Positions 4,046-54,807 of a stretch of 64,000 nt of DNA are shown piece after piece; position 1 is the first letter of the stretch, and each line of letters begins with the position of its first letter. The stretch comes from a virus. The notes beneath the pieces were generated by a model. That model searched no databases, was not told the origin of the DNA, and saw only the letters and a list, made by a program, of their open reading frames with translations. A program made the translations under genes and the position numbers. The stretch is taken from positions 32,001 to 96,000 of IMG/VR virus record IMGVR_UViG_3300035070_002905. One strand, given 5' to 3'.

Positions 4046-4051
4046 TCTAAC

Positions 4052-7945: not shown

Positions 7946-7955
7946 CCAGCTAGTC

Positions 7956-8230: not shown

Positions 8231-8241
8231 AGGAATGTGAC

Positions 8242-8661: not shown

Positions 8662-8665
8662 TTTA

Positions 8666-9229: not shown

Positions 9230-9338
9230 TCACAGACGTCGCCTACGCCTCTCTGCGAGGCGTTAGTACGTCCAGGGAACACTTAGGCGACATATCTTAA
9301 TAACCTCTCACAGGGCTACACAGCTCGTAGGATACAGC

Positions 9339-9701
9339 ATGAACATTACAATAGGTAACAAGGAAGTAGGTGAGGCCATTCGTCGATACATCAAATCGGA
9401 GACCGGCATGGATGCCGAGGGTGATATCGCCTGGGATATCGGCGGAGATCATCCCGGCGAGCCACGTATCATTGGCATCCATTCCGAGATCAGGATCGAC
9501 GTTAATGTGGATATAAAAAAGCCTGCGCCCGACTTGAGTAAACCCACACCTCGTAAAATAAATGATCTAGGGGATATCTTTAGGGATAGAGCCATCGAGC
9601 GAGGTCTACCATACCAAGAGCCACAGCCTCGGTGGCAGCACCCTCACTACCAACCGCACACGATATTATGTAAGGGACAACATGTGGATACCAAGGCATA
9701 G
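9339..9701 (+). CDS. Hypothetical protein
   Basis: ORF in operon context. Confidence 0.55.
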   Translation: MNITIGNKEVGEAIRRYIKSETGMDAEGDIAWDIGGDHPGEPRIIGIHSEIRIDVNVDIKKPAPDLSKPTPRKINDLGDIFRDRAIERGLPYQEPQPRWQHPHYQPHTILCKGQHVDTKA

Positions 9702-9930
9702 CTACGCTTTAATTCAGGAAGATCCTCCTAAGCGTATCAGCAACATCATCGAAGCAACTATACACGAAGTTCCCTCTGACGAGGGTACTGTCATTCACGG
9801 CGGCGACACCGACCTAGAGATAGGTCAACGTGTTAAATTTAAACGTCATTTCACTACTACTGATATCGACGGCCAACTACTAATTAACGACAAGGATATA
9901 ATCGCATGCTTAGCGCCTACCAAGTCTTAG
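9682..9930 (+). CDS. GroES-like co-chaperonin
   Basis: IPRHSYALI...[17 protein letters not shown]...[10 protein letters not shown] parallels the GroES pattern (RPLHDRVIV...GEVLAVG..VKVGDIVIF...IMSESDILA). Confidence 0.6.
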
Positions 9931-10274
9931 ATGCACACGAAGAAGATATGATCGGTTCAATCTGGATCGTAGAAGACGGGACAGCGCGATGCGTTGCCGG
10001 TCGTAAGGATATGGAAGGCCTAGTAGTAGAAGAGTCTGATCTTCTATTCCTAGAGAGCCGACCTGTAGAAGTAAAGACCTGCCCTAAAGTAGAAGGCGGT
10101 CAACACCTCAATGTGAACGTACTGGATCGAGAGACGCTGATGGACGCAGCTGAGAATCCCGAGAAGTACCCTCAGTTAACCATCCGAGTCTCTGGATATG
10201 CAGTGCGTTTTAACTCACTGACTAAGGAGCAACAACAGGATGTCATCAACCGGACCTTCACAGAAGCAGTCTAA
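9906..10274 (+). CDS. grcA: Autonomous glycyl radical cofactor
   Basis: [11 protein letters not shown]...[31 protein letters not shown]. Confidence 0.95.
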
Positions 10275-10386
10275 TCCGGTAGCTAAGTACGCCCGTGACT
10301 TTAACGTCGCGGCCGTACACCGGGACCGTAAGAAAGATAATCGTAAAGGTTATCGCAAACACAAAGGCTCCTACGGGGGCCTTTAA
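10240..10386 (+). CDS. Small basic protein (48 aa), ArfA-like pattern; not in ORF track
   Basis: SD AAGGAG; [48 protein letters not shown]. Confidence 0.6.
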
Positions 10387-10393
10387 TTTTTTT
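10363..10393 (+). terminator. Intrinsic terminator
   Basis: AAAGGCTCC-TACG-GGGGCCTTT plus a T tract. Confidence 0.75.
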
Positions 10394-10417
10394 AGCTCAA
10401 CTTAAGTCCTAAAAATT

Positions 10418-10431
10418 GTTATAAGTAATAT
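10418..10431 (+). promoter_or_regulatory. Class A promoter-like motif GTTATAAGTAATAT
   Basis: Follows a terminator and precedes a new operon; repeated motif. Confidence 0.7.
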
Positions 10432-10472
10432 GTAAGGATGTATATTATTTGTCGTAATTAAAGGATATTATT

Positions 10473-11105
10473 ATGAAAAAGCTAATAGCGTTGTTATTTG
10501 TACTTATACTTTCAGGCTGTGCTAATGGAATACCTACTATGAGTTATTCTAGTACTACGCCGGAAGCCCTTGAGAATACTGAAAAACTATTCGTCGGAGT
10601 CCCCGTACTGCTAAGTATGGAAGGTTCTTCTGCACGTCTTAATGAGGACTGGATCGTCACCGTTAAGCACAACTCGCTAATCATGGGTCTACAAGGAGTA
10701 GAATCCTACGAACACCCTACGTGTGATATAGCATTGATTAAATCTAAAGGAGATAACGTAGTACCTACAGGTAAGTTGTATTCAAACGATAAGGTAGTCC
10801 ATGTCGGCTATCCCGTTGGAATGCCCCTGTCTGTGAATGAAGGAGTTTACCTAGGAGATACCTCCGTTCGAGGTTGGGGTGAATGTTCTTACTCTGCTAC
10901 TACCGGAGTCGTAATGAGCGGTATGAGTGGAGGTGGCGTGTATAACGCCGCAGGAGAATTAGTAGGAGTAAACCATGGGTTTGCTACGGGTGAGCTAGTC
11001 TGGCCCGACGGACGCACGGCAGATTCGCCAGCAGTATTCCTATCGCTATTCGCGGTAGAGGATTGGATCGAAGAAGTAACAGGTTTAAAGTTGTATGCTA
11101 ATTAA
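10473..11105 (+). CDS. Lipoprotein, trypsin-like serine protease
   Basis: Lipobox LSGC; TVKH, DIALI and GMSGG catalytic-triad motifs. Confidence 0.8.
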   Translation: MKKLIALLFVLILSGCANGIPTMSYSSTTPEALENTEKLFVGVPVLLSMEGSSARLNEDWIVTVKHNSLIMGLQGVESYEHPTCDIALIKSKGDNVVPTGKLYSNDKVVHVGYPVGMPLSVNEGVYLGDTSVRGWGECSYSATTGVVMSGMSGGGVYNAAGELVGVNHGFATGELVWPDGRTADSPAVFLSLFAVEDWIEEVTGLKLYAN

Positions 11106-11153
11106 TAACAGAGGGCATTTTCGAGTGTCCTCGATTATTAACTAGGAGATACC

Positions 11154-11579
11154 ATGAGACTACTATTATTATTAATGTCGTTCAGCCTACAGGCGCATCC
11201 ATTAGATGAGCTTGTAGATATATTCGACGAGCTACAGTACGATACCGTAGAGCAGTGCCAGGAGATTATCGATACCAATCCGGTAGCAGTCCCCGAGTCA
11301 CCGCAATGCCAGTACCTAGCAGAGAAGGGTGCGCGAGTCATCGAGGTCATCGCCCTGAGCATGGCCGCCGAGGGGATCCCTGTACATAAAGATAATCGTC
11401 GCGAGCTAATCACTCCGGCGATATTGGAGGTAGGTCTATTCGATGCTACCGTAGTAATAGCTGATGCCATGGACGTCTCGGACGCCTCTGTGTACATCGG
11501 CAAGAATCACCCAGAGATGGTTGAAAAGTATATTCGTCCAGAGATGGTCGACACGTTAACTAAAGCAGGTTTATTATGA
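11154..11579 (+). CDS. Exported hypothetical protein
   Basis: Signal-peptide-like MRLLLLLMSFSLQA. Confidence 0.65.
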   Translation: MRLLLLLMSFSLQAHPLDELVDIFDELQYDTVEQCQEIIDTNPVAVPESPQCQYLAEKGARVIEVIALSMAAEGIPVHKDNRRELITPAILEVGLFDATVVIADAMDVSDASVYIGKNHPEMVEKYIRPEMVDTLTKAGLL

Positions 11580-30727: not shown

Positions 30728-33700
30728 TTAGATTAGTTTCCAGTCTGAGGATCCGGATCCTATAGAGTTAACTACCATGTATGCATTGTTGGCTGTTACA
30801 TCTACGTATACCTGTCCGTAGTAAGTGCCGCTAAACGCAGGAGGAACTGATCCTATCTGAGCAAACGGGCCTAGATTGACGAAGGATGTTACTGTGGCAT
30901 CCTGTCTAATAGAGGTTTGACGGATACCCTTCAGTACCATATCGTTCGTACCCTCTACTAACTCTACCACGGTACCAGCTACTACTATAGATCTAATAGC
31001 TTCTACTCTATCAGAGACTACCTTATTATCAGATATATTTGCAGTCGAGGCATCTTGAACCCATATACCTGCCCTCGAGCTAGTAGGAGAGGTGACGGAG
31101 CAGTATTCGTCTACAATGTTATTTTTAACATCTATACTAGTAGAAGAGGAGTCTCCTCGAACTGATATAGGAGTAACTGAAGTGTTCCGTATGATATTAT
31201 CGGAAACCACTGCATTACCCGTCACCCATGCGTATATACCGTTCTTATCTATAGTAGATTGGAATCTACCGTCGATTATATTATTAGTGATATACGCGTT
31301 GACAGCAGACTGGTTAGACACGGATACTCCACAACCTAGGAAGGTGTTAGATACTATCGATATGTCACTTACAGGAGATCCTGAATCGATCTGTACCAGT
31401 AAGGCTCCTGCCATGGCACTAGCCCCTGCACCTCCATCGAAAGTATTTCCGCTGACAACAATGGAAGTATCCGCAACAGAACCTCGGTTCCTGAGGACTA
31501 CAAGATCCTGCTCTACGTTACCTACAAATCCATTAGCAGTTACTTGATTATCAGTTATACGCAAGACTCCCTTTCGATAAGTATTGGCGTCCCAGTCAGT
31601 GGAGTTACCTCCGGCATCTATAAAAGTACCTCTACCTACCTCTGCATAGAAGCACTGTACGATATTCCCAGATATCGTATGCTCCATACTTATAGGTTCA
31701 GTAATCTTAATAGCTGATGCACCTACCGAGTTACGGATGGTATTATCTATATAAGATATGCGGTGACCGCCTAGAGTACATCCTCCATCGATATAGTTAC
31801 CCTGGAACGTAATGTTCTCTCCATTACCATGAGTATCTACAGCTCCTACTGAAGTAGTACAGATAGAAGTACAGTTCGTAACTTGGCTGTTACGTACTAC
31901 TATAGACCCGTTAGATCCACCTCCTCCATGAGCTATTCCGTGTCGAATAGACTTAAAGAAGCTGTTAGTTAACGTCAGGTCCTGACAGTTACTTACACTA
32001 TAGCCATAATACGTGTTGTTAGGGCTAGCTAAGCGATTACTCATATCTACTACTAAGTTCGTAGAGGATACATACCTGCATCGGTCTACTAATATGGCAG
32101 CGTAATCAAAAGAGTTCGCCTTTATATCCTCCAGGTGCAATCCCATAACTCCTGCGATTCGCAACCCAAAGTCTTGAGTTAAGTTCTCTTCACAGACTAG
32201 ACTGAATCCTTTAGCCGTAAAAGAAGTACCTGTGTGTCGGTATATACGGACATCCGTAAGATCGTTATATCCGTCGTATAGAGATTCCTTACTATATACA
32301 GTATTTCCTATTACCTGATTAACCTCTAGGAACTCTCCTTTATAATAGTTATCTCTGGCAGGATTAAAGGATCCTATAGTTGCATCCCATATGATCAGTT
32401 CGTCGCCTGCGCTTATGCTAGATGCGTCTACTACGTCTATAGACCTCTCCCCTACTTCACCTACGGTAGATGCCAGAGTAGTCACCTGGGTAAGCCAGTT
32501 AGAGTCGTCCTCCCCATACCTAAACGCTGTAGTTATAGAATCTCCCGAGATGATAAATCGTACTGAGTCAGAGCCCTCTCCCTTAAAGGCACTACATGGG
32601 GTGAGGTCTATTTGAGACGTTATTTTATAGCTTCCAGGAGGAGTATAAACCGATCCTCTAGTATTAATGGCTGCCTGGATAGCTGCAGTATCATCCGTTA
32701 CACCATCGCCTACTGCACCGAAGTCCTTAACGTTTACTACATCGGCGAAACGCTGGTTAAGTGCACGAGCCTGCGTAGAGCCTACTGAAAGAATCTCTGC
32801 TGCGTTAATCGACTCAGCCGTCTGTGCCGCCGCCTGTGGAGAATCATCTACCCATTGATAGCTATTCCCATCGTTGAACCAGATGTATGTACGTCCAGAT
32901 TCTGTATCGTACCAGCGAGCATTGTCTACTGGGTTCTCTGGAGGAGTAGGCTGTACGTATGAACGTGAGTCACTTGCCTCTGAACGAATCTGTGCGATCT
33001 CGGTTAGTACGTTGTTAAGATCCTCTGTACCTAGCTCACCGTTCTGGTAGTGGCTCGACTTGATACATAGTACGTACGCCACGTTATCCGGACGAGTCTC
33101 TGCACCGCCTGCCGCTACGCCAGTACCGTTAGCTACTAGAGCTGAAGTGCCTGCTCCGGTAGGAACCTGACCGATGCCGTAAGGAGTTCCACCTACAGTA
33201 AGATCCATCTCGCCTACAGAAGAGCCTTGCTGACTACCGATTACTCGTGCCTGCATTGTACCAAAGAACTGTAGCGTAGCCACCGTCCAGTACTGATCGC
33301 TGTTAGGGTGTTGCAGACCGCCTGCGCCTAGTACACGCCAGTGACGGTGTGCAGCCAGTTCAGTCGATGCGATTGTTACCAGTGCGTTGTTCGTATTGCC
33401 TGGTACGACTGCCGAAGCGTCAAACCATACGCCACCATCGTCAGAATACTGAAGACGGATCTGGCTAGGCAGGTATTGAGCGCCTAGAGATTCTGCATTG
33501 AACAGAGTGATCGAGTTAACTGTAGTCGGAGCATCGAACGAGTAGCCGATAGACTGATCTGCGAAGTTAACCGTAGTCGTAGTCGATGTATTACCATCCC
33601 ATAGATTCTCTGTAGTACCTGGGAATGTAGTAGTCATCCAGCGGCCTAGCTCGTTGGCAATCAACTGGCTTGGAATCTGCGTAGTATCTGTACCTGCACC

Positions 33701-34606
33701 GAAGTCGTAGCATCGTACGAAGTCGCCGCGTGAATCTGGTAGAGTAGCCACTTCCGCTGCAGGGTTACCTGTCAGGAATGTCACTAGCTCTGGGTACATA
33801 GAACGAGTGATCGTTCCACCGATTGTACGCAACCAGCCTGCCGGTACGTTGTTATTCGGGAAGTAACCCATAAAGCCTACCGGTACATCTGCCACGCGTG
33901 TAGCTGCAGGAATACCGATGTGACGTACGCTGATAGTCTCCGAGCGAGGCACGAAGTTAAGCGTCAGGACATTACCTGCCAGACTGTACTCAGTAGTCGA
34001 TAGGATCGAACCGTTACGGATAACAATTACAGATGAACGGCTAGGAGCCTGACGGCTAAGCGTAATGTCACGTGTGTTGTTAGCTGCAGAGAATACATGC
34101 TGCTCTTCGGTGATCTCGTTAACGTTGTACGGGTGGTTAACCTGGCTGATCTGCCATTGCGTACCGTCGAAGATCAACTGGATGTAAGCGTTACGTAGAT
34201 CTAGTACTAGGTCTGTATCGCCTTCAATCGTAGAGCCTGTAGGTATAACCGTTACTGGACTTACTGCGAAAGACGAGTCTCGGTCGGCTACTGCTACTAG
34301 ATTACCTACTACTGGATTAGCCGGTAGCGTGATTGTGATACCACCTGCAGCCATGTAGCCGATCTTATCGGTAGCCGTTACGTCGGCATCGGCGTTAATC
34401 CATGATAGGCCCTGTGGAGGTAGGCTAGACCACTGGATGCCGCTATCACCGCCTCCAGAAAATGCTTCCAGGAATTTACCGCCCTGGCCGGCGTATCCCG
34501 GAGCATCGTTAAGATCACTCCAGTTTAGTACCGCTTTGACTTCCGTGCGGATATGCTCCAGAAGTTCGTCGGATATGGTAGAAATACCAACTCTTGTATT
34601 TGCCAT
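30728..34606 (-). CDS. Large multidomain tail fibre/tailspike (probable anchoring RBP)
   Basis: Collar-like PVGFMGYF...LPDSRGDFVR, ETRPDNVA, a discoidin-like segment, WYDTESGRTYIW, NVKDFGAVGDG plus beta-helix. Confidence 0.85.
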   Translation of the reverse strand: MANTRVGISTISDELLEHIRTEVKAVLNWSDLNDAPGYAGQGGKFLEAFSGGGDSGIQWSSLPPQGLSWINADADVTATDKIGYMAAGGITITLPANPVVGNLVAVADRDSSFAVSPVTVIPTGSTIEGDTDLVLDLRNAYIQLIFDGTQWQISQVNHPYNVNEITEEQHVFSAANNTRDITLSRQAPSRSSVIVIRNGSILSTTEYSLAGNVLTLNFVPRSETISVRHIGIPAATRVADVPVGFMGYFPNNNVPAGWLRTIGGTITRSMYPELVTFLTGNPAAEVATLPDSRGDFVRCYDFGAGTDTTQIPSQLIANELGRWMTTTFPGTTENLWDGNTSTTTTVNFADQSIGYSFDAPTTVNSITLFNAESLGAQYLPSQIRLQYSDDGGVWFDASAVVPGNTNNALVTIASTELAAHRHWRVLGAGGLQHPNSDQYWTVATLQFFGTMQARVIGSQQGSSVGEMDLTVGGTPYGIGQVPTGAGTSALVANGTGVAAGGAETRPDNVAYVLCIKSSHYQNGELGTEDLNNVLTEIAQIRSEASDSRSYVQPTPPENPVDNARWYDTESGRTYIWFNDGNSYQWVDDSPQAAAQTAESINAAEILSVGSTQARALNQRFADVVNVKDFGAVGDGVTDDTAAIQAAINTRGSVYTPPGSYKITSQIDLTPCSAFKGEGSDSVRFIISGDSITTAFRYGEDDSNWLTQVTTLASTVGEVGERSIDVVDASSISAGDELIIWDATIGSFNPARDNYYKGEFLEVNQVIGNTVYSKESLYDGYNDLTDVRIYRHTGTSFTAKGFSLVCEENLTQDFGLRIAGVMGLHLEDIKANSFDYAAILVDRCRYVSSTNLVVDMSNRLASPNNTYYGYSVSNCQDLTLTNSFFKSIRHGIAHGGGGSNGSIVVRNSQVTNCTSICTTSVGAVDTHGNGENITFQGNYIDGGCTLGGHRISYIDNTIRNSVGASAIKITEPISMEHTISGNIVQCFYAEVGRGTFIDAGGNSTDWDANTYRKGVLRITDNQVTANGFVGNVEQDLVVLRNRGSVADTSIVVSGNTFDGGAGASAMAGALLVQIDSGSPVSDISIVSNTFLGCGVSVSNQSAVNAYITNNIIDGRFQSTIDKNGIYAWVTGNAVVSDNIIRNTSVTPISVRGDSSSTSIDVKNNIVDEYCSVTSPTSSRAGIWVQDASTANISDNKVVSDRVEAIRSIVVAGTVVELVEGTNDMVLKGIRQTSIRQDATVTSFVNLGPFAQIGSVPPAFSGTYYGQVYVDVTANNAYMVVNSIGSGSSDWKLI

Positions 34607-41856: not shown

Positions 41857-44054
41857 TGTAGTCTCCTTATTACATTAATTCGCTCAGCTACACCAGTATC
41901 AGTAGTAGGTACGCCACCACGATTCATGTACATAACTGGGTTGGCACCTCGTCCGAGTTCATCGTCTTCGAGGTAGTCATCGTATATCCCATCTGCTCTA
42001 CTACGGTCTAGTAGGAACCTTGCCTGATTCTCTTCCACCATTCCTCGAGTAATCTTAACGTCGGCGCCTGCGCCTACTGGATACTCGTATACGGCACGTA
42101 GATCGTCTGCGTCTTCTACCGGGAACATCGTAGGGACTTGCTTAGTAGCATCTACCAACCAGCCCACCGTCCAAGTATCGTCATCTACCCTCTGGAAGAA
42201 TAGCTTACCGTCAGACTCGATATCCGCCACTGAAGGTGCGTACATCTGGTATGCGTAAGGCGACCACTTAGGGTTTAATCCTACATTAGCGTACGGGAAG
42301 TTAAAGTCTCCCGAGAACTCTGCTAGGATGTTCTGTGTACGCGTTACGATGTTATCGTAGTGCTCGAACATATCGACGCTACGTAGGAAGTACTGGGCTC
42401 TACCGTTGATGTTAAAGCTTGGGTTCACATAACGTATTTTAGTTACTACCTCGTTAGCTGTCATCAGGTATAGCGGCACTACGTTCCTATCGTTGAACGT
42501 TACCGTATCTCCCAGAGGGAAAGTATCGGCAGATACGACTGTACGAGTTATACCAGATTGGATATCCGGTCTCGGGTTGCCATCTCCATCGAATCCCTGC
42601 GTATTGTAAGAGCGGTAACCCCTACTGATAACGCCACGGCTTGTCGGCTTATTAGTATCTCCACGTGAACCCATTAGAAGTCCAGTGTACGCCCCGTACT
42701 TATCTCCGATAGTCTGGAACTCTGGAGTCCACCCTGAATTTCCAGGCCAGTCACCGTAGCCGAGTAGAGTAGCAGTGTACTCAGAGCCTTGGAATCGGTT
42801 ATACCAATGCTTACCGCGCAGGAAGTAAGGTCGATACTCGGGATCGGTAGGGTCCTCGTAAGATGCTCCGCGGTCCATATAGCGAACGCTAGGAGGTGCA
42901 ATACAGGTATCATCTAAGTGAGACTGTGCGTCGTACTTAAAGTCGTCTACCAGGTTAACCGGCTCGTCTTCCAGTATCGCCTTCCATACGAAGATCGGAA
43001 AGGTATACGAAGGCTTGGCGTAGTTAACTAGTCGCTGTGCAGTCGTAAAGGCCTTAACGGTCTGGTCGGGCTGAGGCGTAATGATTACCTGGAACATATG
43101 GTGCTTTAGGAAGTCCTGCATCATACGGTCGCCTACAGATCCTGGAGAACAGCGCCCTACATCTCGTGAGGAGTATCCATTAAGAACTTCATTAGGCAGA
43201 TACACGTTGTACCACCATTCGCCGTTATCGTAGTAATCCTGTACTTCAATCCAAGAGGATAGTAGTTGGCCTTCCTGTAGAGTGTCGCCTACCGCTAGGT
43301 CTGGATACATACCGTAAGGAAGTAGGTAGCTCTGACTTGCGGTAAACACTAGATGGTTACGATTAGTCAAATCCTGAGTAATACTAAGGACTTCTTCCGT
43401 AGCACGCGCGTATGGCATTCCCATTGTAAGGTTAACGCCACGCTCGATGTTACTCTTATTAGGTCCATTGGCGTATAGATAGTAGACACCTTGAAGGAAT
43501 TGCTTGTAGTTGAATACAGAGTCTTCCTCATCGAATTCTACTAGGCGCCCGAAGCTGTTATTGATCCACTTATCGTCGACCTCTACGTCTGACATCCAGA
43601 TAGCGTATTGTGGAGTACCCGTCTCAGTGTACCGTACGGGGAACTTATATTCGCTAATCGGCTTGTTAAACTTGATCGTACTATTAGTAGTGTTGATCTC
43701 GTAATCTCTGCCATTATTAAGCGTCTGGGTTGGTAGTAGCGCTCGGTTCATCAAGCGCTCTGCAGACCAGGTACCGTCTACTAGGTTGAACTCGGTGAGA
43801 TCTAGAGGATCTACCGAGTCGCTATCGCTTAGTAGCAGTAATTTAATACGTGTATGGTAGCGCTTCTGGATGTCATCAAGGGAGATCCCCGCGCTACGCT
43901 GTAAGAAATTGCTGTACACCTCTGCCAGACTAATCGTCTCGGAGGCTAGGATACCTTCTACTAACTCAGAATCGCCAAATACGTTGGTCCAGAAGTCCGA
44001 AATGCCGTACATATAGACTAGGGAACCATCGCTAACATTTGGTGCTTCTATCAT
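41853..44054 (-). CDS. Baseplate wedge protein
   Basis: Position after the J-like gene; LY.NGP...NIE.G.N and AKPSYT motifs. Confidence 0.6.
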   Translation of the reverse strand: MIEAPNVSDGSLVYMYGISDFWTNVFGDSELVEGILASETISLAEVYSNFLQRSAGISLDDIQKRYHTRIKLLLLSDSDSVDPLDLTEFNLVDGTWSAERLMNRALLPTQTLNNGRDYEINTTNSTIKFNKPISEYKFPVRYTETGTPQYAIWMSDVEVDDKWINNSFGRLVEFDEEDSVFNYKQFLQGVYYLYANGPNKSNIERGVNLTMGMPYARATEEVLSITQDLTNRNHLVFTASQSYLLPYGMYPDLAVGDTLQEGQLLSSWIEVQDYYDNGEWWYNVYLPNEVLNGYSSRDVGRCSPGSVGDRMMQDFLKHHMFQVIITPQPDQTVKAFTTAQRLVNYAKPSYTFPIFVWKAILEDEPVNLVDDFKYDAQSHLDDTCIAPPSVRYMDRGASYEDPTDPEYRPYFLRGKHWYNRFQGSEYTATLLGYGDWPGNSGWTPEFQTIGDKYGAYTGLLMGSRGDTNKPTSRGVISRGYRSYNTQGFDGDGNPRPDIQSGITRTVVSADTFPLGDTVTFNDRNVVPLYLMTANEVVTKIRYVNPSFNINGRAQYFLRSVDMFEHYDNIVTRTQNILAEFSGDFNFPYANVGLNPKWSPYAYQMYAPSVADIESDGKLFFQRVDDDTWTVGWLVDATKQVPTMFPVEDADDLRAVYEYPVGAGADVKITRGMVEENQARFLLDRSRADGIYDDYLEDDELGRGANPVMYMNRGGVPTTDTGVAERINVIRRLQ

Positions 44055-45619
44055 TCGTTCGCTCCTATGGTCAGATTACGTAGGTAGAACTTCTCGGTCG
44101 GGATCGTATCATAAGTATCCACGATTGTAGTAGAGGAAGTAGTCAGATCTCTCGCTACCTTCTCTCCGGTTAAGTTCAGTGGAAGTACAAAGTCGGTTAC
44201 TCCAGAAGAGTAGATCGCTTGGATCACTTCGCTGGCGTATAGAGTACCTCCGTTAGGGATGCTCGCTATGTAAGTCTCTACCGCTGTACGAGTATCCGTA
44301 GTGTCAGTAGGCGGAGTACCGTGCGTAAGGATATTCACATCGATAAATACCGGTACGAACGCCCTTGCCAGGTAGTCTGCTGTAACTACTCGATTATCCT
44401 CGCCGTCAAGCCATGTCTGCACACCGCCTAGCCCTGAGAATACCTGTGCGTCCAGCGTAACCTTAGCGTTCGGCTGGCCTATAAAGCGAACCTGAGTGAT
44501 CTGCTTAGAGGATAGCCCCATATCTAACTCGCCTACCAGCGGAACGCCGTCCGTATAGGTAGTACTATTAGAGATCTGCGTAGTAAACGGTGTGTTTGCA
44601 GGGACATCGTCTGGATCTGATCCAGGAGGCGGTGCACTAGACTGCGTTATGCTAATTACCGGACCTTCTATGTTGATCAAGCCGGCTGCGTCAGTAGTAA
44701 ACTGGTTCGACTGGATAATCGGGTCTGTATCTACTAGGATATCTGTAAAGCCGCCACGATGGTAATCGATAAGATCGCCGTAGTTAGGGTGTAACGGGTC
44801 AATATTCTCAATCTTAATCAAATCGCGGTATAGGTAAGGACTTCCTAGCCCGAATACCTGCACGCTATTGATGTAGTTGAACTGATCGGTAATCAACGAG
44901 CGTATAGAACGGTCATTTATCAGGTTACGCGTAGAGATCGAATCGTATGAGCGGCCTACCATCTCGGTATTCGTCTCGGCAGCGATCGCCTGCTGCGAGT
45001 TATACAAGATCTCGCCCTGTAGGAAGTACGGAGAGAAGATCGTGAAGTATAATAGGTCGCCTTCGCTTAGGTTATACTCAGTAGTCTGTCCCTCGGACTG
45101 TAACGTGATGTCTACGTACCATAGATCCTGACTGTTATCATACTCGAAGTAGAACTGACCGGTAACTGGAGTAGTAACTGGCGGTAGTACTGTAGTATTC
45201 GCTCGTGGAGTGAAGTACAGAGTATCATCGGTAGAGAATCGAGCGGTAGCAGGTATCTGTACGGCCGTAGGAGTTCCCGTAGGAAAGCTAAAGTACAGTC
45301 GGCTAACTACCTGTGCGCTAGTGCCCGTCTTACGGGTGATGAAAAAGTTGCTCAGACGGCGATCTACGATATCTGCATCGGAAGCATCCGTGATATTGTT
45401 TAGATCAGACTCGTCGAAGTAGTAGGTGATAGCCTTCTGGATCGATGCCATCATTACTGCATTAGGTCGGACGATCATGTCTCTAATAGCAGTACCCTGT
45501 CTGAAGTCATACGTCGGGAACAGAGCTGATAGATACTGAGCTGCGAATACTTCCGCCTCTACAATATCGGCTCTCTCTACCGTTATGCCTTCTATAATTC
45601 CAAATAAGTTAGTAGCCAT
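44051..45619 (-). CDS. Baseplate J-like (gp6-type) wedge protein
   Basis: DFRQGTAIRD, NFFITRK.G..A, ETN.E...R, GGFTDI, YI.SIP.GG.LYASE. Confidence 0.75.
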   Translation of the reverse strand: MATNLFGIIEGITVERADIVEAEVFAAQYLSALFPTYDFRQGTAIRDMIVRPNAVMMASIQKAITYYFDESDLNNITDASDADIVDRRLSNFFITRKTGTSAQVVSRLYFSFPTGTPTAVQIPATARFSTDDTLYFTPRANTTVLPPVTTPVTGQFYFEYDNSQDLWYVDITLQSEGQTTEYNLSEGDLLYFTIFSPYFLQGEILYNSQQAIAAETNTEMVGRSYDSISTRNLINDRSIRSLITDQFNYINSVQVFGLGSPYLYRDLIKIENIDPLHPNYGDLIDYHRGGFTDILVDTDPIIQSNQFTTDAAGLINIEGPVISITQSSAPPPGSDPDDVPANTPFTTQISNSTTYTDGVPLVGELDMGLSSKQITQVRFIGQPNAKVTLDAQVFSGLGGVQTWLDGEDNRVVTADYLARAFVPVFIDVNILTHGTPPTDTTDTRTAVETYIASIPNGGTLYASEVIQAIYSSGVTDFVLPLNLTGEKVARDLTTSSTTIVDTYDTIPTEKFYLRNLTIGANE

Positions 45620-46116: not shown

Positions 46117-46475
46117 TAGTTACCAGCCTCCTTCGCTTGTTGGAGCAGGTTATTAGACTGCCTGTTGTAGTTCCACTTAGCAATGTTGTCCGTCTCTTCC
46201 TGAAGGGCATCTGCGTAGTAGTCTCCACGGCCCATTAGGCGGATGGCGTACTCTGCTGTCTGCGCCAGGTTATCTCGATACCCTCTAATAAGTGCAGCCT
46301 CGGGCTGTCCAGGTCGATCACCAGATACGGATTGAACTACTGCTCTTACTGCAGTGAAATCATTCGGGTCTCTATCGTTGAACTCTTCTGGTACGTTGAG
46401 AGGATCTTCGAGGTATAGTCGTTTACTCTCTAGGTACACCAGGAATTCATCATACATACCAAGAAGATTATCCAT
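46116..46475 (-). CDS. Hypothetical protein
   Basis: Coupled ORF. Confidence 0.6.
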   Translation of the reverse strand: MDNLLGMYDEFLVYLESKRLYLEDPLNVPEEFNDRDPNDFTAVRAVVQSVSGDRPGQPEAALIRGYRDNLAQTAEYAIRLMGRGDYYADALQEETDNIAKWNYNRQSNNLLQQAKEAGN

Positions 46476-47157
46476 CGTACTTCTCCAATAGGCTCTGAAC
46501 TTTATTTTTTAGCTTACGCTGAGTATAGTTCAACTTGTTGGTGTCCATACCGAACTGCTCGGTCATATCTGCCTGACTCATACCGGAAGTCTTACTATCG
46601 AAGAACTTCAATTCGTCGGGCTTCAGGTTTTCCTTAATGTAGTTCAGCTTGATAGTGTCATCAGAGAACTGACTGGCTACGCCTGCGACTTCCTGACGAG
46701 ACTCGTAGATATCCTGGAACAGGTTTTCCTTAAGATCCACTACCTCTTTAACCGTCCAGTTAAGGCGAGTAGCCAGTTCCTGATCGGTAGGTGCACGTAG
46801 AAGCTCAGACTCTAGATCGTCTAGCGCCTTCTTGTAGTGCTTGAACTTACCCTGCTGCTTATCTTCCGACATACGCACTACGTTCTGGTAGGTGTAGTTC
46901 AGACGACTCGCCTGGGCGATATGGTTGAATACGTGTGTTGAGAGCTTAGCACCTTTACTAGGATCATACGTCTCGATACCCGAGATGGCGTGCTTAGAGA
47001 TCTCTGCCTTAAGCGCTGCGTCGGGTAGCGAACCGGATAACTGTTGGTGCTTCTTATTGAGGACAGGCTGGAGAGCCATTAGAACCTTAGTGCGGTCCTT
47101 CATGTTACCAGTCTGTTGATATACTTGATACAGCTCGTCTTCTTTATACTGTGCCAT
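46468..47157 (-). CDS. Sigma-70-family RNA polymerase sigma factor
   Basis: Region 2 GIETYDPSKGAKLSTH; region 3 LLRAPTDQELATRLNW; region-4-like GMSQADM. Confidence 0.8.
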   Translation of the reverse strand: MAQYKEDELYQVYQQTGNMKDRTKVLMALQPVLNKKHQQLSGSLPDAALKAEISKHAISGIETYDPSKGAKLSTHVFNHIAQASRLNYTYQNVVRMSEDKQQGKFKHYKKALDDLESELLRAPTDQELATRLNWTVKEVVDLKENLFQDIYESRQEVAGVASQFSDDTIKLNYIKENLKPDELKFFDSKTSGMSQADMTEQFGMDTNKLNYTQRKLKNKVQSLLEKYDG

Positions 47158-47430: not shown

Positions 47431-49689
47431 TTAATATTCCAAGAATGGGCTTGATTCAGCATCAATACCTGCTGATACTATTTTACCGCCTTCTTGGGTC
47501 GTATCTTGGAGTCTGGTAGGGTTACGTACATACTCGACATCGGTTAGATCAGTAGAAATCCAATCGTCTATGTCGACATATCCGGTTTGTCCATCAGCAA
47601 TACGTTCTTGTTCGAGCTCGTAGAGTGAAGTGATGTTGCGTGCGACTAGCATCAGGCTGCCCTGTACCGTGTCGTAGAATGGTCCCTCTCCATCTGTAGT
47701 CCAATGACCGCCCGTATCTGCTGTACGGGTGAACGGAATCATTGTACCGGTAGTGTAGTCCTGTAATAGAGCCGGTTCGGCTGCCCCTACTCCTAGTACT
47801 TCTTGGTATACTTGACAGGCCTTTATGTAGCCCTTAGAGTTACCGTAGATACGCGGGTCTTCTGCCAGATCGAACGTAGCCATTAGGTATGGGTTGATCG
47901 CTGGTAGATTGAACTTAGCCAGTTCTGCTAGGGTCGATAGGCTGGTCATCCCGTATGTGGTAGATGACATACCATCTGCAGAGATATCATGTGTGATACT
48001 CGTACAGAAACCGTGGTAGCTATCTCGACTAGGTACAGGATCGACTACGTCCATCGGATATCCTACTACGGCGTACGGGTTAAATACTCCGGTAGCTGAA
48101 CCCTGACGAGACTTAGCGGTCTCCTGTGCAAACTCCTGGTCTGCGTATAGGAAGTTAAGGCGTTCGAAACTAGCGATCCCTGAGCTAGTCCCCAGTGGAT
48201 TGTAGTTAGGATTGCCTGGGTACATAGTGTTCCAAGCCTGTAGAGCTGCATTATACTCTGTACCGACTACCTCTGTGCCGCCGCCTTCAGTGTCCTTCTC
48301 TTCCAGGTAGCCACGCATTAGGTTGTACTTCATAGGTAGCTGCGTGACCTGAGCACGTATGCCCTGACCCCACTCGTACTTACCGACCTTGTTATTGTAA
48401 GAAGATCGTGAGCTGCCCAGGTTACCGCCTGCACCTCCGCCACGGGCGTACCGTACCGAGTGTGGGCTAGTATAAGTAATGCTTGGACCCATCTGACCCA
48501 TACCTGCCAGGCCTGCTGTAGGATTGGCTAGGTTGACGGTACGTGTAGGAGTCGCCGAGTACATACTCTGCATGTTAAACGAGTAGTACATGTTCGGGAG
48601 TAGCACGTTACATATCGGAGCGTAGTAGTATGGTAGGCGAGGCTTCGTGATATACTCGATGATAGAACCGTCTGCTCGGCTGACCGGGCTGTTCAGGGTA
48701 ATCATATCGTACTCGAGTAGATCTAGCATCATCGATACCAGTTGACCATAGCTTCCTATCTCGGGACTCGGCATGCCGGCCTGTAGAGATTGCAGTGCTG
48801 CTACCGATAGTTCTTTCTGTGCGGCCTCCCCTACGAACGTCTTATACGCTAGGGGGATCATAGTAGGCTTGTTGTCTACATCGGGATTGGCCTTAGCGTT
48901 CTCTTCCGGTCTGAAGTTGTACGTGCTAGTTGCAATGCCGTTCTCGATAGTCGGGTGGCCGGTCATTCGCTTCCAGAACTTGATACCGTCTTCTACCATC
49001 GGAGTGAATAGCTCCCTCATGGCTTCCGAGTCGTTAGAACCAACGTTCCTCTGTGCGTCTAGCTTCAGGATATTCCATAGTACGCGGATCATTCCCGGTG
49101 TACCCTGTAGGCGTAGTGCCTCGGCGGCGTCTGCTACATTCTGATGGCTGTCCGTGCCTGCCGTAGCGCTGATACCTTGTAGAGCTTTGATCATCGCCGT
49201 CTCGCGGCTGAACTCTGCAGTAGTCGTAGCGCCGGTAGCTGTAGGGTCGGTCTCGCTTAGAGCGCCCTGTACTAGCTGGCTAGAGTAGCGGATCAGGATA
49301 TCGCTCAGTACACGTGAGTGGTGAACGGCCTGTAGTGTAATCTGCTGCTGTGCTCCGTTAGAGCTGATAGACTTAGTATCGGATACTGCACCGATGATCC
49401 CAGAGAAGATCAGCTTATAGCCGTCCTGCTGGGTAGCTCGTGTAGCTCCCGAGATTACCTCATTAGGAGTAACGCCGTAGTTGTAGTCTCTAAAAAAGAT
49501 CTCTACCTTAGGCTGGTAGTTCCTACCGATCTCCTGCAGGCCTGCGAAAGGCGGCAGCGAGATGTCGGCGGTAGGGTTCTGCTGGTAAACGTTACTGATC
49601 CGAATATGGTTAAAGGGCACCTGAATGCCCTCTATGTATACCCGGTAGTCTTCGTACAGCATGTCTAATCCTGTTCGATTAAGTGACAC
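47431..49689 (-). CDS. Baseplate hub-like protein
   Basis: VYIEGIQVPF, LIFSG.I, FNPYAVVGYP, ITHDISA. Confidence 0.6.
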   Translation of the reverse strand: MSLNRTGLDMLYEDYRVYIEGIQVPFNHIRISNVYQQNPTADISLPPFAGLQEIGRNYQPKVEIFFRDYNYGVTPNEVISGATRATQQDGYKLIFSGIIGAVSDTKSISSNGAQQQITLQAVHHSRVLSDILIRYSSQLVQGALSETDPTATGATTTAEFSRETAMIKALQGISATAGTDSHQNVADAAEALRLQGTPGMIRVLWNILKLDAQRNVGSNDSEAMRELFTPMVEDGIKFWKRMTGHPTIENGIATSTYNFRPEENAKANPDVDNKPTMIPLAYKTFVGEAAQKELSVAALQSLQAGMPSPEIGSYGQLVSMMLDLLEYDMITLNSPVSRADGSIIEYITKPRLPYYYAPICNVLLPNMYYSFNMQSMYSATPTRTVNLANPTAGLAGMGQMGPSITYTSPHSVRYARGGGAGGNLGSSRSSYNNKVGKYEWGQGIRAQVTQLPMKYNLMRGYLEEKDTEGGGTEVVGTEYNAALQAWNTMYPGNPNYNPLGTSSGIASFERLNFLYADQEFAQETAKSRQGSATGVFNPYAVVGYPMDVVDPVPSRDSYHGFCTSITHDISADGMSSTTYGMTSLSTLAELAKFNLPAINPYLMATFDLAEDPRIYGNSKGYIKACQVYQEVLGVGAAEPALLQDYTTGTMIPFTRTADTGGHWTTDGEGPFYDTVQGSLMLVARNITSLYELEQERIADGQTGYVDIDDWISTDLTDVEYVRNPTRLQDTTQEGGKIVSAGIDAESSPFLEY

Positions 49690-50353
49690 TTCCGTATACT
49701 CCGTAGTAAGCGATGATTGCTAGAGCACGCTCTAGTATATCCTCTATTGTGTACAAGTAGTCATTCTCATCGATGTTCTGTCGTAGACTCCTCAGTCGAG
49801 GTACCAGACGATCCATCTCTGCATGACTTGTTATTAGACTCCAGTTCTCCGGGATAGTCGGTAGGACCGGTACGCCTAGCTGCTCGTAGCCCAGCAAGGC
49901 TCCTGAGTATGTGCCGGCTAGATAGTTCATATATCCACGAGTATCACCGGTAAGCGCATAGCTAGATCCTACTGCAGGGTTTAGCGTTACACCTACTCGA
50001 GCTCCGTAGCCACGACCGCATAGACGACAGAAGCCGTTCTCGGTTAGGCAGTTACCGGTATCTCTAGTCCGTACGAAGTAGTTGCCTGCAGTCAGGCGTT
50101 CTACTAGATATGGATCATCTATTGGCGCGTTGGTGTCCAGTGCGATTAAGCCGAGTACCTCATAGTCCGTGTCGGGGATATCCATCCTGCGTCCTATAGT
50201 AGTCTCACAGTCAATCTCCGTGCACGGCATGGTAGGATTAAGTATCTTGTTAGCGAACGAACGTAGAATAGGATCCGTGTTAGGGATCGCATCTAGGTTG
50301 AACACGTTCTGTAGTAGTAGGGAGTTCGAATAGGAACGTACACCTAATGCCAT
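49679..50353 (-). CDS. Protein with an RNA polymerase beta-prime Zn-site-II-like segment
   Basis: EIDCETTIG...EVLGLIA...VRTRDTGNCLTENGFCRLCGRG; SD GGAGG before the ATG at 50353. Confidence 0.6.
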   Translation of the reverse strand: MALGVRSYSNSLLLQNVFNLDAIPNTDPILRSFANKILNPTMPCTEIDCETTIGRRMDIPDTDYEVLGLIALDTNAPIDDPYLVERLTAGNYFVRTRDTGNCLTENGFCRLCGRGYGARVGVTLNPAVGSSYALTGDTRGYMNYLAGTYSGALLGYEQLGVPVLPTIPENWSLITSHAEMDRLVPRLRSLRQNIDENDYLYTIEDILERALAIIAYYGVYGSVT

Positions 50354-50354: not shown

Positions 50355-51671
50355 TTAGCCTCCCATCTTAATTGGTAGTGAAGGATCAAGCTCTGGCTCT
50401 TCCGTCTGAGGCGTAATGCCTAGCGATAGAGTGGCTCGTTGATTTACCACTAGTACTGCAGCTTCTCCTGTAGGAGTTCCTCGGGCAGCGCCCTTAGTTC
50501 CTCCGGCAGATAGCGATAGCATTGCAGGACCAGCATCTACATCAGGGCCTCCCGCTACATCTATTCGTCCACCTCCGCCTTCTCCGATAGAGCCTACCTT
50601 AGCGGACAGACTATCTGGGAAGTTACAGATCTTCGTAATAGCGTTATCGATATTGTTCGCCGCTCCATACACTGCACGGGTGGCCGACTCTATATTCCCG
50701 ATGATGTCATCGATGCCCGACTCGATTGCGTCTATGAAGCTCACTGCCTCGTTAGCGAATGCTGCTACCTGAGCGGCTAGATCGACTAGCGGTGCGGTGA
50801 AGTTACTGATGAAGTCGTTGATATCACCGAAGAAGTCCGTTACGTCCGAGGCCGAGAACCCGATTAGATCCTTAATGGTCGGCAGCGTAATGATCGACTT
50901 AGTATAATTACCGGTAGACAGGCCTGCAGTGACGTTAGCCGTGGGCGAGTCGTCGGGTAGAGGCACTAGGCTAGCCGTGTTGTTCGCAGTACGTGCAAAT
51001 ATGTCGGACGCCGTGATCGTAGGATCTCGCGTAGTAAGCGTAGTGTAGTTAATGTCACCCGAGCCGTCTGCATTTAGGAAGTACTCATCGGTAGAACGGA
51101 TGATGAACTCTCGTGCGATGAAGCTTGCAGTGAACCGTACGTCAGTATCTCGGTCTGCGCCCTGCTGTATCTGGATACTCAGGAAGGCACCGGTGAACTG
51201 TGCGTTGTTAATCGACATCTCTACGTACGAGTATTCCTGTGCAGCCTTACTACCGCGTAAGAAGTCTTTGTATAGCGAGAGGAACTGTGCGAACTGATCG
51301 TTGTCTAGGTCGTCTACTATGATACCGCTTAGGTTTACTACAATCGGTGCATGCCCGTAGAAGTATACGGCCTCTTTACCTCCGAAGGTATGTACAATCT
51401 GCTGTTTCTCTACGATGCCGTAATCGATGTTCTGTGCTATAAAGTTAATGTATCCAAGGCCGTCAGGGTTTAGTACATCCCACAGAGCATTCGACTGATA
51501 CTGCTGTTGGGTCTGACTGGCATTGGAGTGAAAGGTCGCCCATTCTTCATTCGGTACGTGGAAACGTAGAGAAGCCGCTGTACCGCGGCTCTCTTCTGCT
51601 ACCCTATATCGTGGACGTACAGTCTGGAGACGTTCTCCATTCTGATTAATACGACTTGGTAATTCAGCCAT
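50355..51671 (-). CDS. Tail tube initiator/baseplate protein
   Basis: EKQQIVHTFG...YFYG.AP.V.NLSG; immediately downstream of the TMP. Confidence 0.55.
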   Translation of the reverse strand: MAELPSRINQNGERLQTVRPRYRVAEESRGTAASLRFHVPNEEWATFHSNASQTQQQYQSNALWDVLNPDGLGYINFIAQNIDYGIVEKQQIVHTFGGKEAVYFYGHAPIVVNLSGIIVDDLDNDQFAQFLSLYKDFLRGSKAAQEYSYVEMSINNAQFTGAFLSIQIQQGADRDTDVRFTASFIAREFIIRSTDEYFLNADGSGDINYTTLTTRDPTITASDIFARTANNTASLVPLPDDSPTANVTAGLSTGNYTKSIITLPTIKDLIGFSASDVTDFFGDINDFISNFTAPLVDLAAQVAAFANEAVSFIDAIESGIDDIIGNIESATRAVYGAANNIDNAITKICNFPDSLSAKVGSIGEGGGGRIDVAGGPDVDAGPAMLSLSAGGTKGAARGTPTGEAAVLVVNQRATLSLGITPQTEEPELDPSLPIKMGG

Positions 51672-51673: not shown

Positions 51674-51871
51674 TTACTCCCTTACGGTGGTCTGACGCAT
51701 AACGTTACGTTGTTCCAGTAGTTCCTTCTGTCCGAAGACTCCGCCTAGCTGTGTAGGCATGAACTGCTTCTCGGAATCCGTAGCTAGATGCCTTAGACGC
51801 CCTATTGTAGATTCCACATGAACCTTAAAGATTTCAGTGGATGTCATATTAACTAGTTTAATGCTGGCCAT
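51674..51871 (-). CDS. Hypothetical protein
   Basis: Coupled ORF. Confidence 0.55.
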   Translation of the reverse strand: MASIKLVNMTSTEIFKVHVESTIGRLRHLATDSEKQFMPTQLGGVFGQKELLEQRNVMRQTTVRE

Positions 51872-54807
51872 TATCTACCTACCTTATTCTTGTAGTCCTC
51901 TGTGGACATATGCCAAGGAGTGTCCTGGCGTAAGTTACGTTCGTTCAACTGCTTCATCTGCTGAGTCAACTCGTTAGTGGCAAAGCTATTGGCTTTCACC
52001 TGGCTGGCTAGGTCTCCGCTGTTGAGTAGATTGTCGAGGTTCTTACCGATATCCTTGAAGGCCGAAGTATCAATCCCCAGGTCGTCGTCAGACTTACCTG
52101 CAGCTTTCTCTTCTTGGTACTTCATAGCGTCAGCGATAAGCTTGGCGTCAGTATCGTTGTTGCCACCGAATATACTGCTAATGGCTCCCGTATTGAAGTC
52201 ATTCTCGATTGCCCGTGCACCGCCTCTATTGTTAATGTACTCTTCGGCGTCTTCACGAGAGAACCCTAGACTAGATAGCCTCTGAAGGATATCCTCTTTG
52301 CCATTAATGTTGGCTGCACTCGCCGACTTAATACCGCCTCCGACTGTCATACCAGTAAGCGGATCGAATGTCCCAGTAGTTGTAGGCATAGTATCGCGAG
52401 TCTTACCAGCTGCCTTAGCTGCCGTACCGACTATAGCGTCTATCTCACCTCCTGCCACTACCCTACGTGCCTCTTCTTCAGATACTCCGTAACCCTTAAG
52501 GTATTGTATCTGCTCGGCTTTGGATGCTCCCGTTAGGCGGGCTTTGATCGCCTTGTTCATATCGCCAGAGTAAGTGTCCTGGTATGCGCCACGTAGTACA
52601 TCTCCGCTAACGCCACGATCACCCATACGACTAGCAATGAAGTCATCGCCTGATTTCTTAAAGGCGCTTGCTGATACCTGCTTAACCTTAGTACGTCGGA
52701 TCTCATTTTTAGCTGCACCCTCATTTACCAGTTGGTTTACTCGAGTGGTTATGCCTGCAGGATCGTCTGTACCGAATACCGCACCGCCTGACTGCTTGTT
52801 TACCTTATAGGCTAGCGTCTCGATACGATCGAGCTCTTCCTGGGTATAGCTGTCACGTCCCAGTAAGCTCATTAGCTCACGGGCGTCTTGCTGTGCCTGT
52901 CCTTCAGCCTTAGCTGACTGAGTGGTAATACCGGTAATCACCGAGGTCCACTTATCGTTAGTCGAGAAGCTGCCTCCGCTAGTAGCTCCAGTAACCGGGC
53001 TAGTATAAGTACCCTGCATTGAACCTGACTGTAAGCCGACTACATTGCCGCCAGCGTCGTAACCCTCAGCACGCGCGGTACCGGGTACGCCTAGGATCGA
53101 TGCTGTAGTACTCTCCCAAGCATCCGCTAGCCATGAACTAGCAGCCAGAGGAGCTGTGCCTATTCCTGCACCTGCACCACGTGTATTAGATCCAATCTGA
53201 CGGAACTCGTTCTGAATAGCGCCTAGACCCCAGACGCCTGCCATCGATAGCCCTTCACGACCACGACGGTTAGCCGTCTCACGACGACCAGATGCATCCG
53301 ATGCTAGAGATCGGTTAGTACGGTTAGTAGGATCCTGCTCTGCCTGATATGCCAGTACAAGCGACTGGAACTCTTGCGAGCTATAGCCGTTCTGCTGTGC
53401 CACCGTAGCCAGGTTCTCGATCTTACTAGCGTCCATGCCCGAAGCACGTGCCAGACTCTGTAGCATCTTGAGTGGACCGTTGATCATGCCGTCGCTACCT
53501 ATGAACTCACTCATATTAGCGCCTTGGTTCATGAACTGCTTACCCATGGTACCGTAAGGATCAGCCGCGAACTGTGCTCCGAATGCAGAGGTCGTACCTA
53601 CTACACTAGAGCCTGGACGCATACCGCCCATCATCATCATTTGGCCCATCGGAGAGCTCATCATACGCATGCCGCCTTGCATTACGTTCTGAGTCATCCC
53701 CTCCATACCGCCTAGAGCTGCTACCTGTCCTGCAGAGATTAACCCTGAACGACGTGCTCCTGAGAAGCCGGCGAATATGTCTGCAGCCTGTGTCTGACCG
53801 AGTATCGGTGCGACGCCGTATTGGCTGGCGATCATCTGCCCTTGGTTACCTACGGTATTCATTAGCTGGTCTACGCTGACGCCTGATGCTGCCGAGGCAG
53901 AACTCATCATACGCATGACCGTTCCCATCTGAGAGATGTTCTCAACGCCGGCTCCACGCATGCGACTCATATAGTCCACAGCTTCTTTAACGGAGTCAGT
54001 GTTAGCTAACGTCATGATAGTCTTAACGTTATCGGCCATAGCCTTAACGCCTTCGGTAATACGGTTGACGTCCATATTGCCTATGTTGTTGAACATGCCT
54101 GAAGCCATACCGTAGTCGCCGATCGCGTTGAAGTCCTCTGCGGAGAACGTGAAGTCCTCTGCACCGGCTTTAGTTAACGCGCTGGACAGCTGGGTTGCTC
54201 TAGTATTACTAATACCGTAAGCTCCTGAAGCATTAGCGCCCTGGCCTGATACGAAGGTATCGCCTAGACGGTCACGCCAGTTCTGTGCTCCCCGACGAGC
54301 CTCTACGTATGGGTCCATTACATTACGGTCTGCGAAGCTAGCAACTCCAGCTGCGGCAGCCATCGGTAGCATTGCACCGGCTACAAAGCCACCTGCTGCT
54401 CCACCTATTGCTCCCATGCCGACTCTACCGGCTATACCGCGTCCTAGGGCTGAACCGAATCGGTTAGCTCCACCGGATAGCAGTCTATCTGCACCGTACC
54501 AGGCAGCCAGTGGGATCGCACCCTTCTGCATAGCACTCATGCCTGCGTCCATCGGTGCGAACGCAATGTTAGATCTGTGTGCTCCGTAGTATTGGGAAGG
54601 ATCGTCTCGAGCCCTCCTATCATCTCCGAATGGCGTAAACGCCTCGTGCATCGAATAGCCTAAACCAAAACGGGGAGCGTACGGGTTATCCGCTTGCTCC
54701 CTCTGGTAGGCTGGTCGAAACTGAGACATATAAGCCGGCGTCATGTAGGCAGGGTCTATGTTCCATCCCTGGTACGTGCTCATCGGCGTATTGAATTGAT
54801 CAACCAT
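51871..54807 (-). CDS. Tape measure protein
   Basis: 978 aa, A/G/M-rich helical, hydrophobic Gly-rich segment; lies directly after a frameshifted chaperone pair. Confidence 0.75.
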   Translation of the reverse strand: MVDQFNTPMSTYQGWNIDPAYMTPAYMSQFRPAYQREQADNPYAPRFGLGYSMHEAFTPFGDDRRARDDPSQYYGAHRSNIAFAPMDAGMSAMQKGAIPLAAWYGADRLLSGGANRFGSALGRGIAGRVGMGAIGGAAGGFVAGAMLPMAAAAGVASFADRNVMDPYVEARRGAQNWRDRLGDTFVSGQGANASGAYGISNTRATQLSSALTKAGAEDFTFSAEDFNAIGDYGMASGMFNNIGNMDVNRITEGVKAMADNVKTIMTLANTDSVKEAVDYMSRMRGAGVENISQMGTVMRMMSSASAASGVSVDQLMNTVGNQGQMIASQYGVAPILGQTQAADIFAGFSGARRSGLISAGQVAALGGMEGMTQNVMQGGMRMMSSPMGQMMMMGGMRPGSSVVGTTSAFGAQFAADPYGTMGKQFMNQGANMSEFIGSDGMINGPLKMLQSLARASGMDASKIENLATVAQQNGYSSQEFQSLVLAYQAEQDPTNRTNRSLASDASGRRETANRRGREGLSMAGVWGLGAIQNEFRQIGSNTRGAGAGIGTAPLAASSWLADAWESTTASILGVPGTARAEGYDAGGNVVGLQSGSMQGTYTSPVTGATSGGSFSTNDKWTSVITGITTQSAKAEGQAQQDARELMSLLGRDSYTQEELDRIETLAYKVNKQSGGAVFGTDDPAGITTRVNQLVNEGAAKNEIRRTKVKQVSASAFKKSGDDFIASRMGDRGVSGDVLRGAYQDTYSGDMNKAIKARLTGASKAEQIQYLKGYGVSEEEARRVVAGGEIDAIVGTAAKAAGKTRDTMPTTTGTFDPLTGMTVGGGIKSASAANINGKEDILQRLSSLGFSREDAEEYINNRGGARAIENDFNTGAISSIFGGNNDTDAKLIADAMKYQEEKAAGKSDDDLGIDTSAFKDIGKNLDNLLNSGDLASQVKANSFATNELTQQMKQLNERNLRQDTPWHMSTEDYKNKVGR

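Follow-up and report, generated by a model that had tools for sequence, protein, structure and literature searches.

The stretch of DNA considered here (the window) comprises 64,000 nucleotides (nt), bases 32001-96000 of the IMG/VR virus record IMGVR_UViG_3300035070_002905, which is 172,110 bp long and estimated to be 95% complete. On its minus strand, among genes for a phage tail baseplate, the window encodes a protein of 224 amino acids (aa), P0001, that is related to the region around the second Zn site of beta-prime, a subunit of the multi-subunit RNA polymerase (RNAP). In E. coli beta-prime the ligands of this site are C814, C888, C895 and C898, and they form part of the Pfam domain RNA_pol_Rpb1_5. 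A sequence-only reading of the window had singled out the gene for its TExDC and C...Cx6Cx2C strings. These are indeed present: the translation of P0001 holds TEIDCETTIG, EVLGLIALD and VRTRDTGNCLTENGFCRLCGRG, and the resulting pattern, TExDC...C-x6-C-x2-C, offers C49, C102, C109 and C112 as candidate ligands. The translation also bears out the length of ~224 aa, throughout which no NADFDGD-type motif of catalytic aspartates was found.

P0001 begins at ATG 50353, a short distance behind a Shine-Dalgarno sequence. The TAA of the upstream gene, which encodes a 438-aa protein with a tail-tube fold, occupies positions 50355-50357 and ends 1 nt ahead of this ATG, which points to translational coupling of P0001 to the tube-fold gene. 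The next gene downstream most likely begins 16 nt on, at ATG 49662.

Searches with the single sequence did not reveal the relationship to beta-prime. Pfam (E<=10) and PHROG scans of P0001 returned no match, the protein falling below the gathering cut-off of RNA_pol_Rpb1_5 (PF04998) and failing to match it even at E<=10, and the best phmmer match in the PDB, beta-prime of B. subtilis, was non-significant (E 1.8). The relationship emerges from the family as a whole. An exhaustive HMMER search yielded 130 representative clusters, made at 50% identity, of mostly stand-alone proteins of 205-290 aa, and 81 members were used to build a family alignment and profile (A1). When run against the PDB, this profile matched 85 distinct sequences, all of them beta-prime and all at the second Zn site, the top match being residues 883-997 of a mycobacterial beta-prime (E 6e-11). 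C49, C102 and C109 are found in 81 of 81 members and C112 in 79 of 81, and the four align with the ligands of the beta-prime second Zn site. The TExDC motif before the site and a GxxVG stretch after it are likewise common to P0001 and the bacterial subunit. Judging from this alignment, the cysteines of P0001 probably bind Zn.

The predicted fold leads to the same region. With the family alignment as input, AlphaFold produced a model of P0001 with a predicted local distance difference test score (pLDDT) of 94.9 and a predicted template-modelling score (pTM) of 0.89. The top 50 Foldseek matches of this model in the PDB were all beta-prime (E from 1.5e-3, probability up to 1.0), and an exhaustive VIA search ranked beta-prime of M. 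tuberculosis first (Z 8.4, root-mean-square deviation (rmsd) 3.3 Å over 96 residues). A second VIA look gave 214 beta-prime chains at Z>=5, the best of which, again a beta-prime, reached Z 9.2 with an rmsd of 3.2 Å over 94 residues and 22% identity. Residues 40-167 of the model correspond to E. coli beta-prime 805-1258, and the longer VIA alignments also take in the bridge helix, at its C-terminal end only. In the ESM-Atlas, 10 of 10 shape matches were RNA_pol_Rpb1_5 proteins, spanning P0001 residues 16-214 with a template-modelling (TM) score of 0.46 by query. P0001 is thus homologous, by family profile and fold, to part of the PF04998 domain despite the Pfam miss, and the RpoC homology proposed in the sequence-only reading is upheld both by a profile match and by structural matches, at the E value and Z scores given above. 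Since the fold matches reach the end of the bridge helix and span residues 16-214, the modelled protein looks like a pared-down core of Rpb1 domain 5 rather than a mere Zn knuckle.

While P0001 shares its fold and its four cysteine positions with the bacterial Zn site, it differs from beta-prime in being a stand-alone product of a tail operon and in what it lacks. The aspartate triad, the trigger-loop Arg and His, and the jaw are all missing, and no complete bridge helix was found in the alignments of the model. The trigger-loop stretch of the phage's own beta-prime C-terminal protein (beta-prime-C) reads LT-QMILSTKH, with Lys-His (TKH) where P0001 has neither Arg nor His after its aligned LT. 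P0001 is read here as non-catalytic and not as a polymerase piece.

The genome does encode an RNAP of its own, outside the window. Its beta subunit and the N-terminal part of beta-prime are fused in a single open reading frame (ORF), and the companion gene encodes beta-prime-C, a full Rpb1_4/5 protein with an intact Zn site (TEPDC...C-x6-C-x2-C). One proposal of the sequence-only reading was that P0001 is a piece of a split phage RNAP, which called for a search of the remaining genome for other beta and beta-prime pieces. That search returned this one complete RNAP and nothing further at E<=10. PF00623 matched the 1520-aa fusion gene alone, PF04998 matched beta-prime-C alone, and scans with Pfam Rpb1_1, Rpb1_2, Rpb1_5 and Rpb2_6 gave no additional fragments. 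Likewise, when the phage RNAP proteins were compared with all ORFs by phmmer, P0001 was their sole further paralogue and none of the neighbours was RNAP-like. Because beta-prime-C holds its own Zn site, nothing is left for P0001 to supply. It is possible but unlikely that an RNAP piece was missed because the genome is ~95% complete. With a single RNAP set, an intact site in beta-prime-C and neighbours that are tail proteins, the split-polymerase proposal is not supported.

The closest relative of P0001 is found in the same genome. In a BLASTP comparison, P0001 and beta-prime-C align with E 1e-6 and 29% identity over 90 residues, with the same cysteines paired. Against the family hidden Markov model (HMM), beta-prime-C of this phage and of four relatives scores 53-61 bits (58.5 bits for this phage's own, the best-scoring relative of the family), whereas no cellular beta-prime in the PDB exceeds 45 bits. 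Both beta-prime-C and the P0001 paralogue are present in 4 of 4 complete relatives. Duplication is the simplest reading of these three observations, and on such sequence comparisons P0001 most likely arose from the phage lineage's own beta-prime-C gene, a direction that we infer. Among relatives (Arash and three complete IMG/VR genomes), beta-prime-C proteins share 56-58% identity, whereas P0001 proteins share 43-48%, which indicates that P0001 evolves faster.

The coordinates of P0001, its neighbours and the phage RNAP genes are listed in Table 1. The upstream 438-aa protein has a tail-tube fold at residues ~20-195, with Z 7.7-9.4 against baseplate chains, the best of which come from phi812, Pa193, Bas63, XM1, A-1(L) "initiators", Milano, P1, T4, PVC, Mu and pyocin R2. 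Its Atlas leads are tail tube initiator, DNA_circ_N and GpU. The downstream gene encodes a hub-like protein, for which ATG 49662 (AGGA upstream; 743-aa orthologue) is a likelier start than the GTG at 49689 given in the ORF list (752 aa). Hub orthologues of ~1160 aa have an inserted lysozyme (PF00959) or peptidase M15 domain, of the kind found in tail-associated lysins; the copy in this phage is without it. Profiles of the three large neighbours brought up nothing useful among PDB sequences, and the 978-aa protein, which follows the large terminase upstream of the block, had no family match in Pfam, PHROG or PDB profile searches. Downstream of the hub lie a small gene, a sigma70-family gene, two further small genes and a gp6/J-like wedge protein, the last of which identifies the module as the baseplate of a contractile tail. 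The sequence-only reading had placed P0001 between a tube-initiator-like gene and a hub gene, ~2.5 kb from a sigma factor; the tube fold confirms the first neighbour, the Atlas leads agree with the second, and the sigma70-family gene lies 2.5 kb away in the same operon.

Table 1. Features of the P0001 locus and related genes (window positions unless G000 is given).
Feature	Position	Strand	Description and basis
P0001	49679..50353	-	224-aa stand-alone beta-prime-like protein; ORF and translation, family, AlphaFold pLDDT 94.9
Shine-Dalgarno of P0001	50359..50363	-	GGAGG; sequence read
Zn-module	49949..50236	-	P0001 residues 40-135; predicted beta-barrel homologous to beta-prime second Zn site (E. 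coli beta-prime about 805-925)
Cys codons of P0001	C49 50207-50209; C102 50048-50050; C109 50027-50029; C112 50018-50020	-	
Tail-tube-fold protein	50355..51671	-	438 aa, tube-initiator or Mu gp43-like; fold match, Atlas leads, synteny
Baseplate hub/spike-like protein	47431..49662	-	743 aa; Atlas shape leads Phage_GPD, VgrG, Sipho_Gp37
Probable tape measure	51871..54807	-	978 aa, Gly/Ala-rich; position after terminase and small genes, composition of consensus A5
Sigma70-family gene	46468..47157	-	Pfam Sigma70_r3 E 1e-6 (above cut-off); PHROG sigma factor E 1.8e-7; PDB sigma factors E 3e-4
Baseplate wedge protein, gp6/J-like	44051..45619	-	PHROG baseplate wedge subunit E 1.8e-14; weak Pfam Baseplate_J match
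Tailspike	30728..34606	-	1292 aa; pectate-lyase-like, collar and F5/8-type-C domains
beta::beta-prime-N fusion	G000 148370-152932, outside window	-	1520 aa; Rpb2_6 and Rpb1_1/Rpb1_2 on one ORF
beta-prime-C	G000 145926-147755, outside window	-	609 aa; PF04998, PDB beta-prime E 9e-44

The arrangement of tape measure, small gene, tube-initiator-like gene, P0001, hub, small gene and sigma gene is kept, down to ~30% identity, in every relative examined, namely Salmonella phage Arash, five IMG/VR contigs and several metagenomic contigs. In all of these the homologue of the 438-aa protein is encoded immediately upstream of the P0001 homologue, and a sigma70-family gene lies inside the baseplate operon. 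In one contig, L010 (IMGVR_UViG_3300036764_000324, positions 2669-11342), the hub and tape-measure genes have been transposed to a place before the tube-initiator-like gene; the P0001 homologue still adjoins the tube-fold gene there, and it directly precedes the sigma gene. In a distant relative (L006, positions 1-1539), Prok-JAB and Prok-E2 genes adjoin the terminase. Only four cultured phages carry the P0001 family, where its members are labelled hypothetical or "structural protein". In Arash, gp7 (WGL32458.1) is the orthologue of P0001, 42% identical to it from end to end and encoded at the same place in the gene order, and Vibrio phages D69, D148 and D181 have a homologue at about the position it takes in the Arash record (position alone was compared).

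Further clues to function come from domains that have been added to the family. In some same-position orthologues, which are 512-858 aa long, Laminin_G_3/ConA-like lectin domains follow the Zn module. The majority form of the family, roughly 285 aa, has an insert of ~70 aa at this place, which is not recognised by a Pfam scan. A profile match of 22 bits links this insert to residues 152-227 of the window's tailspike, near its N terminus, and two family members match a PHROG tail-fibre family. Pairwise BLASTP of a 288-aa family member against the tailspike was not significant, so it is the profile match and the two PHROG matches that speak for a fibre-like insert; they are hints of a shuffled, fibre-type beta domain.

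Evidence from virions is available for Arash. In the proteome report (PMC10585845), gp7 is detected in purified virions with 77% coverage, 7 unique peptides and 202 spectra, and the sigma homologue gp10 with 100% coverage. Expressed as spectra per residue, gp7 stands at ~0.9, its baseplate neighbours gp6, gp8 and gp13 at 0.6-1.0, and gp10 at 2.0 (PMC10585845). The same source annotates gp7 generically as a "structural protein" and, in the parts searched, makes no mention of a kinship with beta-prime. The "structural proteome" reported there totals 116 proteins, of which RNAP beta is the most abundant; beta-prime, sigma and metabolic enzymes also figure among them (PMC10585845). These data suggest that a clade of myoviruses with genomes <200 kb packages a multi-subunit RNAP holoenzyme in the virion. 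Together with synteny, the mass spectrometry of gp7, permissive as it is, agrees with the P0001 family being a virion structural protein of the Arash/Vibrio D181-like clade.

On balance, we lean towards P0001 being an exapted, Zn-stabilised beta-prime module that acts as a structural adaptor in the baseplate core and offers an outward-facing insertion site. Following duplication of beta-prime-C, the copy would have kept the C-terminal end of the bridge helix, the beta-barrel of the second Zn site, the base of the first trigger helix and some of the helices that follow, while the trigger-loop tip, the jaw and all catalytic parts would have been deleted. It would then have been taken into the baseplate core as a low-copy virion protein, produced along with the tube-initiator-like protein and the hub. 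Placed at the hub periphery, P0001 may be a rigid adaptor that takes the position of the LysM "glue" proteins, with the loop behind its Zn module facing outward; in relatives it is this loop that would bear the fibre-like beta domain or the ConA-like lectin. Of the three alternatives raised in the sequence-only reading (a piece of a split RNAP, a mimic of an RNAP surface, or an RNAP domain co-opted as a tail component), it is the last that fits best with the synteny, the lectin and fibre-like inserts and the detection of Arash gp7 in virions.

The comparison with LysM proteins deserves qualification. Such glue or hub-adaptor proteins of contractile baseplates include T4 gp53, pyocin R2 PA0627 and the LysM domain of Afp7/Pvc7. 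P0001 is likewise small and encoded beside tube-initiator and hub genes, which suggests a positional analogy of role. Its fold is wholly different, a beta-prime-like Zn barrel with helices, and not that of LysM.

Several points weigh against the adaptor reading. We infer the baseplate position and the adaptor role; the analogy with the glue proteins is one of gene order. No LysM domain (PF01476) was found in the genome by Pfam, although a miss of this kind is weak evidence, given the divergence of LysM domains in baseplates. No baseplate protein of known structure with the fold of P0001 appeared in the fold searches. The hub is identified by Atlas leads with TM <0.5 by query, and the AlphaFold model of the whole 438-aa protein is poor (pLDDT 52), its N-terminal domain alone being usable. 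Finally, given the breadth of the 116-protein Arash list, the detection of gp7 means presence in the preparation and is weak proof of a tail location. A predicted complex of the 438-aa protein with P0001 scored 0.02, which says nothing either way on binding.

Among the other explanations, a role linked to RNAP is unlikely but has substance. The module might bind a partner surface of the phage RNAP or the co-encoded sigma factor, whether as an escort in assembly or packaging or as a tether that keeps a virion-packaged holoenzyme near the tail for co-injection. P0001 in its entirety imitates a core module of beta-prime and is closest to the phage's own beta-prime-C, and the sigma70-family gene is conserved in the operon, directly after the P0001 homologue in L010. 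Against this, the module is internal in RNAP and is not a known docking surface for sigma, and the lectin and fibre-like inserts of orthologues, being typical of exposed tail proteins, are odd for an RNAP partner and hard to square with one that is intracellular. The Arash preparations can be read both ways: RNAP beta, beta-prime and sigma are abundant there and gp7 likewise, yet the normalised spectral counts of gp7 are like those of baseplate proteins and unlike those of the RNAP and sigma set (PMC10585845). A more specific version, in which P0001 docks the packaged holoenzyme or the operon-encoded sigma onto the baseplate hub so that polymerase and DNA are delivered together, seems to us quite improbable. 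We also doubt, a little less strongly, that P0001 shares the interior of the hub or tube with the tape measure, to be released into the host on infection. Its gene does lie between the tape-measure and tube-initiator genes and the hub, and the Arash homologue is found in virions (PMC10585845); a compact, globular Zn domain of 224 aa, with lectin-bearing orthologues of up to ~860 aa, is a poor fit to a tail lumen, and the AlphaFold model shows no transmembrane or unfolded segments.

Two remaining explanations can be largely set aside. That P0001 is a subunit of a second RNAP of virion type, both split and highly divergent, as in the phiKZ-like and AR9-like jumbo phages, draws on weak fold matches to their non-virion RNAP (nvRNAP) chains (phiKZ 7ogp_D, Z 3.8; AR9 7s00_D, Z 3.2), on matches to jumbo-phage RNAP pieces in BFVD, a search that gave no clear structural-protein match, and on 4 of 81 and 3 of 81 members that match two PHROG "RNA polymerase beta subunit" families. 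The phiKZ and AR9 pieces do contain the same beta-prime module, but they are 480-510 aa long and form an active enzyme together with other fragments, whereas P0001 has no partner fragments in the genome beyond the one RNAP set described above. Its large flanking genes are tube-fold and hub-like rather than RNAP pieces, and it lacks the catalytic aspartates as well as the trigger-loop Arg and His; a second polymerase is therefore very improbable and largely refuted. Scarcely credible, finally, is a decaying, functionless duplicate. Nothing speaks for it except the lack of an assigned activity, and it is contradicted by 130 clusters with intact ORFs, invariant cysteines, a fixed position and a very confident fold.

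To our knowledge, core modules of multi-subunit RNAP have not been found in use outside polymerases. The literature searched describes neither a free-standing beta-prime Zn module nor one encoded in a virion operon, and the account of an RNAP-encoding Caudovirales lineage within it (PMC7481178) makes no mention of the P0001 family. The fold and the module are thus known; the stand-alone form and the placement in a tail operon are new. If P0001 is a baseplate component, it would be a clear example of a transcription-enzyme domain exapted for a tail machine, in which it may have replaced the usual hub adaptor without being orthologous to it. Were the docking version true, the machines of transcription and injection would be physically linked, with co-delivery through a contractile tail. 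As a compact and very confidently folded protein, P0001 could also be used as a minimal model of how the second Zn site of beta-prime contributes to folding. More broadly, the finding draws attention to a poorly studied clade of ~150-190-kb myoviruses, consisting of Arash, Vibrio phages D69, D148 and D181 and probably the "mReC" lineage (PMC7481178), in which RNAP, sigma and the P0001 paralogue all appear in virion preparations.

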